Origin: Candidatus Latescibacterota bacterium | GTDB lineage: Bacteria > Latescibacterota > UBA2968 | DNA: 64,000 bases | Direction of reading: 5' to 3' | Assembly (NCBI GenBank): GCA_965204375.1 | Contig: OZ241986.1 | Span: forward strand, 4,928,001-4,992,000 | The notes under the pieces: model-generated | What the model saw: the letters and a program-made list of their open reading frames with translations, nothing else | What the model was told of the DNA's origin: nothing | Databases searched by the model: none | Made by a program: the position numbers and the translations under genes | Shown: piece after piece, positions 35,469 to 41,424 of the stretch | Layout of the letters: each line of letters starts with the position of its first letter | How positions within the stretch are numbered: position 1 is the stretch's first letter

Positions 35469-36977
35469 CTATTGAATTTTCGCCCAATCGGGCATCACCC
35501 CGAGTTCAATACCCAGCACAACGCGACCAACAACAGCAATCGCAGCAGTAATCATCACCGCTCCTATCAAATTCAACCCTACGCCCACGCGCGCCATATC
35601 GCGCATCGCAATTCTATCCGTGCCAAACACAATTGCATTGGGCGGCGTAGCTACCGGCAACATAAACGCACAAGAACACGACAACGTGGCTGGAATCATC
35701 AGCAACAATGGATTGAGACCTACAGCCACAGATAACGCCGCCAAAACCGGAAGAAACATCTCTGCCGTTGCCGTATTGGAAGTCAACTCTGTCAAAAAAG
35801 TCATCATTACACACAAACCACCGACCAAAAATAGAGGATGCAAGCGCCCCATACCCTCTAACTGCTGCGCGCACCAGAGCGACAACCCCGACTCCTTAAA
35901 CCCACTTGCCAGAGCAAATCCACCGCCAATCAGCAACACAATATGCCAGGGCACGTTGCCAGCCGTTTGCCAATCCATCACTCTGGATTTCGCACCATCT
36001 CGCGCGGGTACGACAAATAAAATCAAAGCCATTGCCATAGCAACTGACCCATCGGTTATCAATCCGCCAGATTCGAAAAACTGAGACCAGCCCGGCAGCG
36101 TCCAATCGCCAATTTGAATGGGGCGTCTCGACAACCACAACAGCGCCAACAGCACAAAATCGGCCAGCACGATCTTCTCGGCAAATGACATTGGCCCCAA
36201 CTCGGCATATTGCGTTCGCACCACACTCAGATCAATATCATCGCCGCGACCGCGAATACCAAAAACGAGACAAAGCGCGCCCCACGCACAAACGAGCATC
36301 ACGCATGCCAGAGGCAGAGCAAACGCAAACCACGTCGCAAACGAAATCTCGGGAACCTCTGAAAAATGAATCGACAAAATCCTCACAAAAGACAAATTGG
36401 TCGGCGTACCCACAAGCGTTGCACTCCCACCAATTGAAGCCGCATAAGCCACCCCCAGAAACACCGCCGTGCCAAAAGAACCAGATGCCACACCCTGCTC
36501 TTCCATTCTAACCACAATAGCAAGTGCAATAGGCACCATCATCATCGTTGTTGCCGTATTGGAAATCCACATGGACAAAAACGCCGTTACCAGCATAAAA
36601 CCCGTCAGGATACACCGGGGACACCCTCCAAAAAGGAGCAGCAAGCGCAGGGCAATTCGCCGGTGTAAATTCCAGCGCTGCATGGCCAGTGCCACCATAA
36701 AACCACCGACAAACAAAAAGATAATGTGATTCAAATAAAGTGGCGCAACCTCTTGCCCGCTCATAATACCCAGCAGGGGAAACAGCACAACGGGCAACAG
36801 TGCCGTCGCAGCCAAAGGCACGGCCTCTGTCATCCACCAAACCGCCATCCAGCAGGCCACACCTGCCGTATGTGTTACCTCGGGATGTCCCGGCTTGAGG
36901 TCTCCAAAAACCGTGACACTCAGCCCAATTATCGGACCGAGCCACAGCCCCCAGCGTTCTATTTTTTTATTCAGCAT
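35469..36977 (-). CDS. SLC13/DASS sodium:dicarboxylate/sulfate symporter
   Basis: SMWISNTAT, GTPTN, TSNTATA, FMLPVATPPNAI. Confidence 0.92.
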   Translation of the reverse strand: MLNKKIERWGLWLGPIIGLSVTVFGDLKPGHPEVTHTAGVACWMAVWWMTEAVPLAATALLPVVLFPLLGIMSGQEVAPLYLNHIIFLFVGGFMVALAMQRWNLHRRIALRLLLLFGGCPRCILTGFMLVTAFLSMWISNTATTMMMVPIALAIVVRMEEQGVASGSFGTAVFLGVAYAASIGGSATLVGTPTNLSFVRILSIHFSEVPEISFATWFAFALPLACVMLVCAWGALCLVFGIRGRGDDIDLSVVRTQYAELGPMSFAEKIVLADFVLLALLWLSRRPIQIGDWTLPGWSQFFESGGLITDGSVAMAMALILFVVPARDGAKSRVMDWQTAGNVPWHIVLLIGGGFALASGFKESGLSLWCAQQLEGMGRLHPLFLVGGLCVMMTFLTELTSNTATAEMFLPVLAALSVAVGLNPLLLMIPATLSCSCAFMLPVATPPNAIVFGTDRIAMRDMARVGVGLNLIGAVMITAAIAVVGRVVLGIELGVMPDWAKIQ

Positions 36978-37104
36978 AGCTTCTCCATGGTCACATCTTT
37001 TAGAGATTCAACAATATATACCATAAAACAAAAAGTTAAAACTTGTTTGAGCCAACAAAAAATTGCACCTTTTGGGAACCTTTCCAACCCTTAAAAGTAA
37101 AAGA

Positions 37105-37182
37105 ATATGCGACAAAGCGTGTCGCAAAAATATCGGCGTTGACTCCTATACCCCGGCTGAGTCAACGCCGTTACTCTTTCTT
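37105..37182 (+). ncRNA. Candidate small RNA A
   Basis: GGAAC-N17-GTAA upstream; hairpins GCGACA/TGTCGC and perfect 12-bp CGGCGTTGACTC/GAGTCAACGCCG with C-rich loop and T-rich tail. Confidence 0.45.
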
Positions 37183-37212
37183 GGAACTCTTTTCTGTACA
37201 AATGCGTCTAAT

Positions 37213-37278
37213 CCGGTACCATGCAACATCCCTTGAGGCGTTGGTTATTCCCTCCCGACCGACGCCTCTTATTTTTAT
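37213..37278 (+). ncRNA. Candidate small RNA B with UCCCUCCCG loop
   Basis: ECF-like promoter GGAAC-N17-CGTC (37183-37208); 11-bp stem with G-U pair; TTATTTTT tail. Confidence 0.55.
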
Positions 37279-37282
37279 AACT

Positions 37283-37305
37283 AAAAAAACTCCCCTCGGG
37301 GAGTT
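37283..37305 (-). terminator. Terminator after sigma and small-protein genes
   Basis: AACTCCCC-GA-GGGGAGTTTTTTT on minus strand. Confidence 0.75.
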
Positions 37306-37334
37306 GATATGCAGCGCCATTTCTGCTTATATCC

Positions 37335-37511
37335 TCACTTATTGGACTGCCAGCCAAGCGGAAACCGCCGCTCCTGCAAAATACGCCTGGCTTTATCTTT
37401 TTGTCCTTTCTCAATAAACCTGAGCAAAGACCGCACATCATCCGCGGTATAAACCCAATGCGTTTCATCGGGATTCAATCCATAACGCGGATCAACATAT
37501 TCTGTACGCAT
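37335..37511 (-). CDS. Unannotated 58-aa hypothetical protein downstream of the sigma factor
   Basis: AAGGAGGT RBS; MRTEYVDPRYGLNPDETHWVYTADDVRSLLRFIEKGQKDKARRILQERRFPLGWQSNK; followed by terminator. Confidence 0.7.
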   Translation of the reverse strand: MRTEYVDPRYGLNPDETHWVYTADDVRSLLRFIEKGQKDKARRILQERRFPLGWQSNK

Positions 37512-37525
37512 ACAAACCTCCTTTC

Positions 37526-38365
37526 CTAATTATTATGCACATTCCGCACCAACAACCTCATATCGGGATGATGCCGCAGTTTTCGCAAAGCGTGAGCCTT
37601 AATTTGTCGCACGCGCTCGCGACTTAACTGAAACCGCATCCCAATCTCCAAAAGCGTCATTTGAGGCGCGCCATCCAGGCCAAAATACAGACAAATCACC
37701 TCTTTTTCGCGTGCATCGAGTAGATTCAGAGCCGATGCAATACCATCTTGAAGCGCGTTTTGAAACAAAGAGGCATCTGCTCCTGCTTGTGGATCTGACA
37801 ATTTTTCTTTCAGACAGAAGCTATCATCGGGGTGAAAGGGCATATCCAAAGACATAATAGGCTGCATATCGCTGAGCAAATCAGCCACATTTTCGCGCGT
37901 CAAATTAAAAGCCATTGCAATATCCCCCTGGGGGTCATCGCGGGGTTCTTGCTCTGAAAATCGGACAATTTTACGCAAAAGCTCAACGCGGCTGGCCGGC
38001 AGACGAATAGTGCGGGCGTGTTGCGCGATAGCCTGCTGGATCGACTGGCGTATCCACCAAACAGCATACGTGATAAACCGAAATCCCTTTTCTTCATCAA
38101 ACCGCTCCGCGGCCTTAATCAAACCCAAATTGCCAGCACCGATCAAATCGCTCATGGGCAGGCCCAAATTTTGATACCCTTTGGCCACGCGCATCACAAA
38201 GCGCAAATTGGCAACCACCAACCGGTTCCGCGCCTCTAAATCACCCTGTTTGATCTGCACAGCCAATTCGCGTTCTTTTTCGGGGGAGAGGGGTGTGCAA
38301 GCGGCCAGATCCGCCGTATAAGCATGCAACAAATCCATCGTGCGATCTGCCGAAACGGAAACCAT
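37526..38365 (-). CDS. RNA polymerase sigma-70 factor (RpoD/RpoS/RpoH-like, lacks region 1.1)
   Basis: LVVANLRFV, DLIGAGNLGLIKAAERFD, TYAVWWIRQ, LSRERVRQIK; RBS AGGAGG. Confidence 0.92.
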   Translation of the reverse strand: MVSVSADRTMDLLHAYTADLAACTPLSPEKERELAVQIKQGDLEARNRLVVANLRFVMRVAKGYQNLGLPMSDLIGAGNLGLIKAAERFDEEKGFRFITYAVWWIRQSIQQAIAQHARTIRLPASRVELLRKIVRFSEQEPRDDPQGDIAMAFNLTRENVADLLSDMQPIMSLDMPFHPDDSFCLKEKLSDPQAGADASLFQNALQDGIASALNLLDAREKEVICLYFGLDGAPQMTLLEIGMRFQLSRERVRQIKAHALRKLRHHPDMRLLVRNVHNN

Positions 38366-38480
38366 CTTCTCCTCCTGTGAGTGAATAACGCAATATCTGG
38401 CACGAAAATACGCACAGGATGTTACAACCGCGTTTCTGTCAAGTGACAATCGCGTGGAGCATGTTCTATTTTATTTATAA

Positions 38481-38540
38481 ACAAAAAAGCCTTTGAGGGT
38501 TCCCTCCCGACACCCTCAAAGGTTTGTAAGTCTGCTATAA
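38481..38540. ncRNA. Candidate small RNA or leader terminator C
   Basis: 11-bp perfect stem with loop TCCCTCCCGAC (+) / GTCGGGAGGGA (-); minus-strand TTGACA-17-TATTTT promoter and T-tract. Confidence 0.55.
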
Positions 38541-38573
38541 AAGCAAAATAAATTCCAAAAATAACCCTGTCAA

Positions 38574-38652
38574 CAAAAAAAGCGGGCTGCCAACAGCACT
38601 CTATTTATCGGGAGGGAGGAAATAAACAGACATGCTGAGGCAACCCGCTGTA
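38574..38652 (-). ncRNA. Candidate small RNA D with UUCCUCCCUCCCG loop
   Basis: TTGACG-17-TATGTT promoter; long stem with three G-U pairs valid only on the minus strand; T-tract. Confidence 0.6.
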
Positions 38653-38703
38653 TATAAAACATACCCAACTACAAAAACAACGTCAAGAGTATAAAAAAAA
38701 TTA

Positions 38704-41424
38704 TTACTCAAGCAGAGTCTGAATATCAAAAATCGTTGTCCTCGCCTTGATATCTTCGTGCCTCAATGCGTCCTTAATGCGGTCGGCATTCCCGTAAATA
38801 AGCATCAGCAATGGCAATTTGTTCTGACTGTTTAACATCCTTTTGAAAACGCGGCGAATATCCTCCTCCGTCACCCCATCAACAGCCGATTCGTATTCCT
38901 CCAGCGAAAGAGCGGGCACCCCATCGCGGTCATAGCGCACCTGCTGGCTGAGTCTGCTCTGCGGACCGAGTTGCAAATGATACGCTCGCTTGAGCCTTTC
39001 GCGACCTTTCTCCACCTGCGCCCAAAAATCTGGCTCAGACAAACAATGGTGAATCAACCGAAACATCTCGGGAACAAGCTCAGAAGTATAAACACCTCGA
39101 GGATCAGCCGAAAAACTCAGTACTGGCGGTGACGTCCTTTCGTCAATACTCACGCCCGTCGAATAACACCAGCCCTTTTGTTCGCGAAGCCGAATAAACA
39201 ACAGGCGGTCCAGCGCATTGACCAAAACCGTTTGTGCAAACCAATCCTCATTTGTGCGTGGCAAACCATTGGTTATCCAATAACAAAAATCAGCTTGATG
39301 GGTATATGGATAAATTAAAGCGTGCAAACCCGTAATCTCTTTGCGTTTGGGCCGGGGACGTGGCAAAAAACCATCTCGAACCCGGTTGTGCGTCATCACG
39401 CGCAAACTGCGTTCAATTTCCGATTTACTCAAATCGGAAGTCACCGTAAAAAAGAGGACTTTTGCGCGCAAGGTTCGATTCCAAAATTGTTGCAAGTCTT
39501 TCATTGTCAAATTTTCAAGTGCCGTGCGCGTACCTATCCTCCGGTCCTTGTCGTATTTGTACAGATGATACCTGAAAATTTCCGTTCCTTTATGGTCGTT
39601 AACATATTCCTCAAAATCGTCTATGATCCGCGCCCGTTCCTTATCTAACAGTTCTTTAGAGAATGTGAGATCTCTCATCATCACCTTCAGGCGTCTCAAA
39701 GCCGCATCCAAATTTTCGCTAAACACGGTCAGGTTAACGGTAACATATCGGTCAGAAATATTGAACCAGAACTCTGCGCCAAGCCGGTCCATCTCTTTTT
39801 TATCTTCCCCGTGTAATGCCAGATCATTCAGGCGAAAAAACGCAAAGGACAAACCGCGCGTATCCATTGTCTCCTGCAGATCCCCCCCTGTATAATACCT
39901 CATTGAAAGCCGCGTTTGCGGCACGCGCGTATCTTGCACGTAATATATCTTGTGATTGGAAATTTCTGCATCTGCTACCGAAATATTGCAAAGGACTACA
40001 AATAACCCCACTGCAAGTACTCGCCGTCGCCAGTACCAGCATCCTCCCACACCTGCGAGAACCCACACAATACCCACATAAAGCCACACATGCCGCGATG
40101 GTGGTCGCTCTGGAGACGAGACCAGAGCAAAAGTGCGGGGTGGCTGGTCCAAAAGATATTGCTTCACCACCCGCTTGACATCCGCCACAGTAATCTCATC
40201 GAGATTCTGCATCCACTTGAGACGATGGGCGGGATCGCTGGTGCGAATAAATCCAGAAGAGATCGCATTTGCCAGACGGGACTGACTGGTTATCGTGCGA
40301 TATAAAGTCTTACGCGCTTCGTTCCGCGCCAGCAGAAGATCCTCCTTAGATAAAGAATCGATAGCTGTTTGAATAATTTGTGGCATTTCCTTAACGTCAT
40401 AATATGCACCCGAGGGTAAGTCGGCTATAAAATAAAACAGTCCTTTATCGCGCAGAGCATACTGAGAGTAGCTTAGCTGAAGGGCTTTTCCAGAACTAAC
40501 CAGTTTTTGATGAGCAAGAGAATATTCACCTTCAAAAAGAGCTTTGGCAAATAAATACAAAGCGTAATAGTCCGGATGCGTATCTGTCGGAATATGCCAG
40601 ACACCCCAGACAGAAGAATGCAGACCACTTGTAGATTGCAGGGAATCCTGGGGGACAGATACATCCTCCAACGTATCAACATCATCGTGAATAAACCCCT
40701 CGTCCTTCGGTATCCCTCCAAAATGTTGAACCACAACGGGCAAAATATCAGTCCCTTTCACATCACCGACAATTACAAGACAGGCATTATTCGGCACGTA
40801 ATAACACTTGTGAAATGCGGTCGCTTGCTCCAGAGTAAAAGTTTTAATCGTATCGCGATGACCCAGAATATCGTACCGATAGGGATGTCCTGCAAACATG
40901 CGGGCATACAGCTTTTTGTAAAGCAACCGACGGGCGCCTTCGACATTACGCGCCCATTCAGCCAGAACCACCTCTTTTTCGAGATCAAATGCTTCCTGCG
41001 AAACATCAAACCGTGTCATACCCCGTGCAAAACTGGCGATCAGCGCGTCCAATTGCGCTTTGGGAACAGTCGCGTAGTATTTCGTGCCATCTCTCGACGT
41101 ACTGGCATTGGCGTGTGGTGCTTCCGAAAGGTGGAACGATTCTAAGAATGAGCGATCCACTGCGAGGTGCTCGACCAGATGCGCCATGCCCTGCCGGTCG
41201 GGTGCTTCGTGAGAAGATCCCACGCGATAGGCGATTTGGCACGTCACAACGGGACGGGTATCGTCTTCCACAATCGCAACCTGAAGGCCATTGGCGAGGC
41301 GATAGTGCTGGAGAGAAAGCGAGCCAGCAAGCGAAACATCGGCGACCTTTTGATAGGGCGGCGAACTTGCCAGTACCTGAAGCGGCAAAAGACAGAGAAG
41401 AAGAGGAAAATATCTGGAACGCAT
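38704..41424 (-). CDS. M16 (pitrilysin-family) zinc peptidase, two halves joined by a hydrophobic linker
   Basis: Signal peptide, YRVGSSHE…GMAHLVEHL (HxxEH), NASTSRD; second half LREQKGWCYS. Confidence 0.85.
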   Translation of the reverse strand: MRSRYFPLLLCLLPLQVLASSPPYQKVADVSLAGSLSLQHYRLANGLQVAIVEDDTRPVVTCQIAYRVGSSHEAPDRQGMAHLVEHLAVDRSFLESFHLSEAPHANASTSRDGTKYYATVPKAQLDALIASFARGMTRFDVSQEAFDLEKEVVLAEWARNVEGARRLLYKKLYARMFAGHPYRYDILGHRDTIKTFTLEQATAFHKCYYVPNNACLVIVGDVKGTDILPVVVQHFGGIPKDEGFIHDDVDTLEDVSVPQDSLQSTSGLHSSVWGVWHIPTDTHPDYYALYLFAKALFEGEYSLAHQKLVSSGKALQLSYSQYALRDKGLFYFIADLPSGAYYDVKEMPQIIQTAIDSLSKEDLLLARNEARKTLYRTITSQSRLANAISSGFIRTSDPAHRLKWMQNLDEITVADVKRVVKQYLLDQPPRTFALVSSPERPPSRHVWLYVGIVWVLAGVGGCWYWRRRVLAVGLFVVLCNISVADAEISNHKIYYVQDTRVPQTRLSMRYYTGGDLQETMDTRGLSFAFFRLNDLALHGEDKKEMDRLGAEFWFNISDRYVTVNLTVFSENLDAALRRLKVMMRDLTFSKELLDKERARIIDDFEEYVNDHKGTEIFRYHLYKYDKDRRIGTRTALENLTMKDLQQFWNRTLRAKVLFFTVTSDLSKSEIERSLRVMTHNRVRDGFLPRPRPKRKEITGLHALIYPYTHQADFCYWITNGLPRTNEDWFAQTVLVNALDRLLFIRLREQKGWCYSTGVSIDERTSPPVLSFSADPRGVYTSELVPEMFRLIHHCLSEPDFWAQVEKGRERLKRAYHLQLGPQSRLSQQVRYDRDGVPALSLEEYESAVDGVTEEDIRRVFKRMLNSQNKLPLLMLIYGNADRIKDALRHEDIKARTTIFDIQTLLE

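Follow-up and report, generated by a model that had tools for sequence, protein, structure and literature searches.

In the genome of a Candidatus Latescibacterota bacterium (assembly GCA_965204375.1, contig OZ241986.1), a stretch of 64,000 nucleotides (positions 4,928,001 to 4,992,000, here called the window and numbered from its first letter) carries a ten-nucleotide sequence, TCCCTCCCGA, in the loops of three stable hairpins, B on the plus strand and D and C on the minus strand, all of them in the intergenic space between a gene for an M16 peptidase and one for a DASS transporter. A sigma-factor gene stands between C and B, and the locus thus raises the question of whether the hairpins serve this gene, act as terminators of their neighbors, or represent genes for small RNAs (sRNAs) in their own right. 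The answer developed below, held with moderate confidence, is that they are independent small RNAs, of which D, B and a distant paralog of D (D2) would present a C-rich loop resembling the anti-Shine-Dalgarno (anti-SD) sequence, and that the G-rich RNA C would pair with them loop to loop, as RosA does with RoxS.

The three copies of TCCCTCCCGA (37249-37258 and 38501-38510 on the plus strand, 38608-38617 on the minus strand) compare with a mean of 0.15 copies in shuffled versions of the window, none of 100 shuffles having reached three. The genome, one closed contig of 6,340,849 bases with 50.8% G+C, holds only 10 copies on both strands together, which is close to the number expected by chance, and three of these ten fall inside 1.4 kb. 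So few copies in 6.34 Mb rule out a dispersed repeat as the source of the motif; this was one of the checks proposed in an earlier interpretation made from the letters of the window (the sequence-only reading). The same interpretation had located the three copies in hairpin loops and assigned B to the plus strand and D and C to the minus strand, placements which are borne out by counts, folds and shuffles in the former case and by folds, T-tracts and wobble pairs in the latter. CCCTCCC was found genome-wide in 27 loops closed by stems of 7 or more pairs, of which only four, B, C, D and one at genome position 1,575,597, have stems of at least 10 pairs. No Rfam family reached its gathering score anywhere in the window; a search of positions 36900-38800 in E-value mode gave seven weak matches, all with E of at least 1 and far under their gathering scores, which were taken as chance, and a match of that region to MicL (11 bits, for a gathering score of 56) was rejected on the same grounds.

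D and C are predicted to be structured RNA genes, given their strand-specific covarying stems, conserved promoter boxes, invariant loops and T-tracts (Table 1). D begins ~55 nt past the stop codon of the peptidase gene (38704), its promoter-like site lying between that stop and the hairpin, and its fold is far more stable on the minus strand (-38.9 kcal/mol, z -7.8) than on the plus strand (-26.5 kcal/mol). In an alignment of 24 genomes (A1), 21 pairs are formed in 98.8% of cells and six of them show changes in both partners, a result that none of 500 shuffles equaled, and sliding the partners by 1-3 columns reduced pairing to 39-53%. G-U and U-G pairs, which are frequent in the stem, fix the minus strand. 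The 11-nt loop (UCCUCCCUCCC, 38620-38610) has the core CCCUCCC, which is invariant in A1, and also includes CCUCC, the core of the 16S anti-SD sequence. The promoter boxes are kept, with a 17-nt spacer of variable sequence, throughout the genus of the source genome (G000) and in G024, G036, G085, G082, G081, G087, G088 and G027, and the general form that they share with those of C is TTGAC(A/G)-17-TAxxTT. In G013 (locus L005) an insertion of ~100 nt parts the D promoter from the peptidase stop codon, and in G016 the sequence upstream of this promoter is unlike that of the other species, which argues that D is not merely the terminator of the peptidase gene. The insertion in G013 opens with a G-rich repeat, GGGGCTGGGGACTGGGGGCTGG. 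A mini-open reading frame (ORF) within D (ATG at 38633, MSVYFLPPDK) was considered and discarded, its ATG being missing in most species, which have CATTTCTG there.

C follows directly behind D, and its minus-strand promoter and T-tract, proposed in the sequence-only reading, have gained much from comparison: TTGACA is invariant in all 23 aligned genomes, the -10 box is nearly so, the spacer varies in sequence, and both boxes with their 17-nt spacing recur at nine further loci of other genera; the C terminator, too, is kept in these 23 genomes and nine loci. The fold is nearly symmetric (-22.4 kcal/mol on the plus strand, -21.2 on the minus), with a T-tract on the minus strand only, and the U-G and G-U pairs of the stem are likewise compatible with this strand only. 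Within the alignment (A2, 23 genomes), 14 pairs are formed at 98.0%, seven of them having changed on both sides, and 0 of 500 shuffles did as well, so that covariation across related genomes, another check that had been suggested, is found in the stems of both D and C. The 11-nt loop of C (GUCGGGAGGGA, 38511-38501), conserved as CGGGAG(G/A)GA, contains GGGAGGGA, the complement of the C-rich loops, which looks like a strong Shine-Dalgarno (SD) sequence. In other genera the stems of C and D are wholly different and the loops are invariant.

The strongest argument that the D and C RNAs may meet is provided by the manner in which their loops have changed. In the source genome, Watson-Crick complementarity extends over 10 nt between D and C and over 12 nt between B and C; the 10 nt initially claimed for D and C are therefore correct, conserved and covarying, and the 11 nt claimed for B and C fell one short. 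The D-C loop duplex has an energy of -24 kcal/mol, and 1000 shuffled C loops gave a mean of -12.7, none being as low. If G-U pairs are also counted, 10-13 contiguous pairs can form in 24 of the 26 genomes in which D and C stand in tandem. Beyond the invariant core, the flanks of the loops differ between lineages and match within each lineage: g1 and g9 have ...CCCGA(U) in the D loop and (A/G)UCGGG... in the C loop; in g11 (G081, G082) these read ...CCCAA and UUGGG..., a G-C pair being replaced by A-U, with a second position also changed on both sides in G081; and in g6 the D loop of G027, CUCCCUCCCGGCGG, forms 14 pairs with its C loop, UCGCCGGGAGGGAG, through CCCGGCG/CGCCGGG, and G033 has 12 Watson-Crick pairs. 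Such coordinated change between two separate RNA genes is rare for a purely computational finding and points to a direct RNA-RNA partnership; a shared third partner behind it is possible but less simple.

Table 1. Predicted RNA units, promoter-like sites and intervening genes of the locus (window positions unless given as genome positions).
Feature	Position	Strand	Description
D promoter-like site, TTGACG-17-TATGTT	38658..38686	-	predicted; box scan and conservation
D, ~80-nt RNA (predicted)	38574..38651	-	one long hairpin 38649-38581, U-tract 38581-38574
C promoter-like site, TTGACA-17-TATTTT	38545..38573	-	predicted; directly after D U-tract, conservation
C, ~60-nt RNA (predicted)	38478..38538	-	variable 5' tail, hairpin 38522-38490, U-tract 38489-38478
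Leader and group-2-like sigma-70 gene	37526..38477	-	leader 38477-38366, ATG 38365, stop 37526, ribosome-binding site AGGAGG
58-aa ORF and terminator	37288..37511	-	ORF 37511-37335, terminator 37305-37288 and T-tract
B, ~60-nt RNA (predicted)	37217..37278	+	hairpin 37235-37268, T-tract 37269-37278
B, possible extracytoplasmic function (ECF)-type promoter, GGAAC-N17-CGTCTAA	37183..37211	+	predicted; conserved boxes
A, fourth unit	37074..37172	+	GGGAAC...GTAAAAG boxes 37074-37103, hairpins 37108-37126 and 37135-37169
D2, paralog of D, 3.4 Mb off	genome 1,575,572-1,575,654	+	second locus of model R1, 33.5 bits

The distribution of the two units was followed through the phylum. A strict pattern of D, consisting of the loop and its flanks, has a single match in each of 24 genomes out of 168 scanned, namely in all 21 of the genus and in G024, G036 and G085, the reversed control giving 0. 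A covariance model of D (R1), applied to a set of 53 genomes of the order at a threshold of E <= 0.01, found it in 31 genomes, spread over 8 of 11 genera; within the genus of G000 all 21 genomes score 81-109 bits. The corresponding model of C with its promoter (R2) matched 45 of the 53 genomes, among them all 15 of genus g6, once in 44 genomes and twice in G036, and in a sample of 103 genomes taken from the phylum outside the order it matched one. D is followed by C in tandem in 26 genomes (the 21 of the genus, G024, G036, G087, G088 and G081); in g6 the two lie far apart, with D of G027 at 564,222 and C at 4,677,798, a distance of 4.1 Mb. In G085, R2 did not find C. Second C-like loci are present in G036 (L231, 3,326,851-3,326,947, loop CUUGGGAGGGAA) and on contig C18 of G081 (L234, loop CUUGGGAGGGAG), where the copy beside D was seen by eye and not by R2. 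C occurs in varied contexts, beside unrelated neighbors, and the sequence around the D-like copies of other genera is likewise unrelated.

The sequence-only reading overlooked that there are two units on the plus strand, A as well as B, and did not notice the further copy D2. B folds better on the plus strand (-20.3 kcal/mol, z -7.1) than on the minus strand (-15.2), and in an alignment of 20 genomes (A3) its 12 pairs are all formed, four of them varying on one side through U-A/U-G, as fits the plus strand only. Its loop (AUUCCCUCCC, 37247-37256) has the core CCCTCCC, invariant in the 20 genomes, between variable flanks (AUUCCCUCCCGA, AUACCCUCCCAA, ACUCCCUCCC); the copy of G019 has diverged or decayed. 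Outside the genus no B was found by BLAST, no covariance-model search for B having been made there. D2, whose locus with its boxes (loci L199-L213) extends over genome positions 1,575,524-1,575,660 (+), outside the window, is kept in 20 of the 21 genomes of the genus and in G023, the R1 match of which is a D2 ortholog. It shows a long hairpin with the loop CCCCUCCC or UUCCCUCCCG, a conserved 5' segment (..GAGGUCUGAU..) and a U-tract, and the gene downstream of it has an N-terminus that reads like a CoxM-type FAD-binding subunit.

Promoter-like boxes also precede these two units. Those of B are kept, with a variable spacer, in 18 of 20 aligned genomes, G011 and G017 being without them, and GGGAAC-N16-CGTTTA boxes stand ahead of D2 in 15 genomes. 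We take the common form, GGAAC-N16/17-CGT(C/T)TA, to resemble ECF-type promoters, and the arrangement recalls the Sigma-E sRNAs of enterobacteria, MicA, RybB and MicL, which are Hfq-dependent and act through 5' seed regions, unlike the units described here. An ECF regulon defined by such boxes was considered and rejected, as they are not enriched genome-wide: the common form has 12 sites, with 8 in the reversed control, and the looser GGGAAC-N15-17-CGT has 102, with 124 in the control.

A mechanism can be proposed in which D, on the minus strand, and B, on the plus strand, are single terminator hairpins that would expose loops with the CCCUCCC core, C would be transcribed from its own promoter directly behind the D terminator and would display the complement GGGAGGGA, and D, B and D2 could each then be paired loop to loop by C. 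The likely effectors would be the C-rich RNAs, masking G-rich ribosome-binding sites of target mRNAs without Hfq, and C would serve as their common antagonist or buffer, in effect as a sponge, although the effector may instead be C. The notion of sibling anti-SD sRNAs or of a sponge, one of the options of the sequence-only reading, still stands. It is of note that Hfq (PF17209) has no match in the source genome, control genomes being positive, so that the units would not be Hfq-dependent sRNAs. The 16S rRNA ends at its 3' side in GGATCACCTCCTTTCT, with the canonical anti-SD sequence (CCUCC), and GGAG is found at -20 to -4 of 1513 of 5930 crude ATG-ORFs.

Comparable arrangements are described in the sections of PMC8216469 drawn upon here for RoxS/FsrA and the sponge RosA of Bacillus subtilis and for RsaE and RsaI of Staphylococcus aureus, where C-rich sRNAs pair with ribosome-binding sites and a sponge of the RosA type is a stand-alone sRNA with its own promoter and terminator, with complementary G-rich regions and no requirement for Hfq. 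The present locus resembles them in having several C-rich RNAs and one complementary G-rich RNA, C. It differs, as far as those sections go, in that C has one G-rich loop and RosA three G-rich regions, in the phylum, in that C lies directly behind its partner D in most genera, and in being known from sequence alone. Neither sequence nor Rfam models relate the two sets; the RsaE/RoxS family has no Rfam match in the window, and there is one C-rich loop per RNA here, as opposed to several C-rich regions. If confirmed, the combination of sRNAs with C-rich loops and a G-rich sponge arose outside Firmicutes, and D and C would offer a defined RNA pair for testing in vitro or in a surrogate host.

Another known group with anti-SD-like loops is that of the cuckoo/CcsR/RSs0680/NfeR1 RNAs (alpha-r14) of Alphaproteobacteria, which, according to the portion of PMC4615179 considered here, carry CCUCCUCCC in the loops of 2-4 adjacent hairpins per RNA. 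The likeness lies in a conserved C-rich loop, in stems that are free to vary, in several copies per genome and, for some cuckoo RNAs, in transcription driven by alternative sigma factors. Unlike these, D, B and D2 are single hairpins, with loops CCUCCCUCCC, AUUCCCUCCC and CCCCUCCC, and the motif is CCUCCCUCCC or CCCUCCC instead of CCUCCUCCC; RSs0680a, moreover, is Hfq-bound, and that portion of PMC4615179 describes no complementary partner RNA. The Rfam models of this group had no match in the window, nor were they among the seven weak matches on 36900-38800. A full-text literature search on small RNAs in Latescibacteria found nothing related.

Several observations weigh against the proposal of C-rich sRNAs and a partner RNA. 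The contiguous D-C pairs number only 8 in G001 and 6 in G024, and RNAcofold, which cannot model kissing loops, shows no loop pairing for D with C, B with C or D with B, the gains of only -1.6 to -2.9 kcal/mol coming from the tails. By these models C is more widespread than D: all 15 genomes of g6 have C and only 2 have D at the order-wide threshold, G084 and G026 being without D even in a laxer search, which suggests that C may also act independently of D. Since the genus consists of 21 closely related species, independent support amounts to ~6-8 genera. As regards B, the covariation of its stem in A3 is not above that of shuffles (174 of 500), and since its flanks are variable, the 10- to 12-nt match with C in the source genome is not general, most species sharing only the 7-nt core. 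The boxes of D and C are taken as promoter-like on the strength of their conservation. RNA data consist of assembled contigs only, from 4 runs of 3 studies, which carry no ends, strand or level and may include carried-over DNA; whole contigs lie in intergenic parts at 37051-37224 and 38496-38703 (X19) and at 38531-38705 and 38403-38522 (X8), so that D, C and the spacer of A and B are covered, a weak indication of presence only, stretches that no contig covers carry no weight, and one contig extends beyond the D promoter. Finally, GGGAGGG occurs at 470 sites in the genome, 110 of which are followed within 2-15 nt by a start codon and an ORF no shorter than 60 aa, and 40 of which pass a stricter filter. 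Ten of these 40 were searched against Pfam (PmbA/TldD, SelA-like, MacB/FtsX permease, Nramp, epimerase, GFO/IDH/MocA and argininosuccinate lyase, with three giving no match); the ten genes share no functional theme, and no target is therefore identified.

The gene between C and B encodes a protein with Pfam Sigma70 regions 2, 4 and 1.2 that falls below the cut-offs of the RpoS/RpoD-type NCBIfam models. Its ortholog is present in 5 of the 21 species of the genus, with 96% identity in G002, G005, G013 and G014 and other hits at or below 56%; the relatives L021 and L022 are 96% identical. The genomes of the genus each give 6-10 matches to the sigma-70 protein (E <= 1e-40), and the genus thus has many group-1/2-like sigma paralogs. 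By comparison, DNA of the D-C and B stretches is found in all 20 other species, and D, C and B themselves are kept in 21, 21 and 20 of the 21. What stands between C and B varies from nothing, the T-tracts overlapping in one AT-rich spacer, in 11 species (G003, G004, G007, G008, G009, G010, G012, G015, G016, G018, G020), through partial ORF-like sequence in G001 and G006 and the leader with the 58-aa ORF but no sigma gene in G011, G017 and G019, to the leader, sigma gene and 58-aa ORF in G000, G002, G005, G013 and G014, with a further 3.2 kb between the 58-aa ORF and B in G002. The conserved leader, the same in G011, G017 and G019, contains CACGCGATTGTCACTTGAC..GTAACA, and the ORF itself has no NCBIfam or Pfam match and nothing in the Atlas (best score 0.77); where it stands between C and B, as it does in a minority of species, it is cargo. 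Since the RNA units are kept whatever stands between them, the comparison lends no support to a dedicated control of the sigma factor in cis, nor to the control of its read-through or translation that the sequence-only reading had offered as one option. The sigma gene is probably a bystander or cargo and not a target of the RNA units; it was presumably inserted here, or else is a remnant that most species have lost, and the comparison corrects an attractive but wrong link. In a contig from a coral RNA library, 37542 is followed directly by 38338, so that 795 nt (265 codons) of the sigma gene are missing, and this contig appears to stem from a close relative that is without almost the whole gene, in frame.

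That link, in which C would attenuate the sigma operon from its leader, with D or B controlling read-through or translation, is highly improbable. In the source genome C does precede the sigma gene, whose strand it shares, and has a terminator-like T-tract, it also precedes the leader and 58-aa ORF in G011, G017 and G019, and in g9 a reading frame starts ~65 nt downstream of it; yet 16 of the 21 species that keep D and C lack the sigma gene, 11 have only the B terminator downstream of C, C is kept in 45 of 53 genomes beside unrelated neighbors, and, as a weak indication, sigma-gene contigs from sponge RNA (X16 and X17, one study) end at 38454 and 38462 and do not reach the C hairpin. Another proposal, also distinctly unlikely, would see only ordinary intrinsic terminators, D belonging to the peptidase gene and C with B working in both directions, their common loop motif being due to descent or chance and without function. 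D, C and B are indeed all GC-rich stems followed by a T-tract, D is placed where a peptidase terminator might be expected, ~55 nt after the stop codon, and C and B converge in most species; a hairpin with a U-tract, however, is also the 3' end of an sRNA, so that this feature does not separate the readings. Terminator loops are normally not conserved, and here they are invariant while the stems turn over. Moreover, D is separated from the upstream gene, and C from D, by conserved promoter boxes, the sequence ahead of the D promoter differs in G016, D-like copies in other genera occur in unrelated sequence, and C is found in varied contexts with loop flanks that covary.

The invariance of the loop cores across genera, greater than pairing alone requires, and the wider spread of C as compared to D would be accounted for if the loops were protein-binding sites, C acting as a GGA-loop decoy for a CsrA-like or other protein and the C-rich loops being bound by a protein that recognizes them, with their complementarity incidental. 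GGA in hairpin loops is the binding signature of CsrA/RsmE, and C shares such motifs with the decoys CsrB, RsmY and RsmZ. This explanation is nevertheless unlikely: CsrA (PF02599) has no match in the closed 6.34-Mb genome, control genomes being positive, which disfavors a CsrA-decoy role; C, unlike those decoys, is a single hairpin instead of several GGA loops and has no Rfam match; and in three lineages the flanks of the D and C loops have changed in step, as would not be expected of a protein site. Three copies of the 10-mer in both orientations within 1.4 kb could suggest that it is recognized as DNA by a transcription factor or sigma factor, whichever strand is read, an idea that is hardly credible in view of the position of each copy in a hairpin loop, of stems that covary with strand-specific wobble pairs, of B keeping only the 7-nt core, and of C occurring alone, far from D, in g6. 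The proposal of paired sRNAs can finally be extended, in what is an improbable version of it, to a matched mimic of the translation-initiation helix, in which C would show a strong SD sequence (GGGAGGGA) and the C-rich RNAs the 16S anti-SD core (CCUCC in CCUCCCUCCC), together setting the cell-wide availability of strong SD sites or of free 30S anti-SD tails, with B and D2 under an ECF sigma factor upon stress and C as a constitutive buffer. If true, this would amount to an RNA rheostat that is directed at the ribosome, works without Hfq and extends through a whole order of uncultured symbionts.

The remaining unit of the locus, A, is divergent from the DASS transporter gene and is found throughout the genus of G000 (21 of 21 genomes) as well as in G023 (genus g4). 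Its second hairpin has an invariant loop, CUAUACCCCGGCU, with 100% of pairs formed and wobbles that are compatible with the plus strand; a T-tract follows A in G001, G011, G012, G017 and G019, and insertions of ~150 nt part it from B in G001 and G012. Even without A, the locus is predicted to provide three or more structured RNA families, D/D2, C and B, which are new in themselves and belong to a known functional kind. The host lineages are sponge- and coral-associated, and the runs that hold the stretch are labeled as sponge, coral or marine metagenomes. Elsewhere in the source genome, GGGAGGG at positions 1,936,387, 4,357,292 and 5,162,131 (-) lies in the terminator stem, and not in the loop, of a repeated element of ~200 nt that is present in three copies and whose terminator 3' arm is GGGAGGGCGG.

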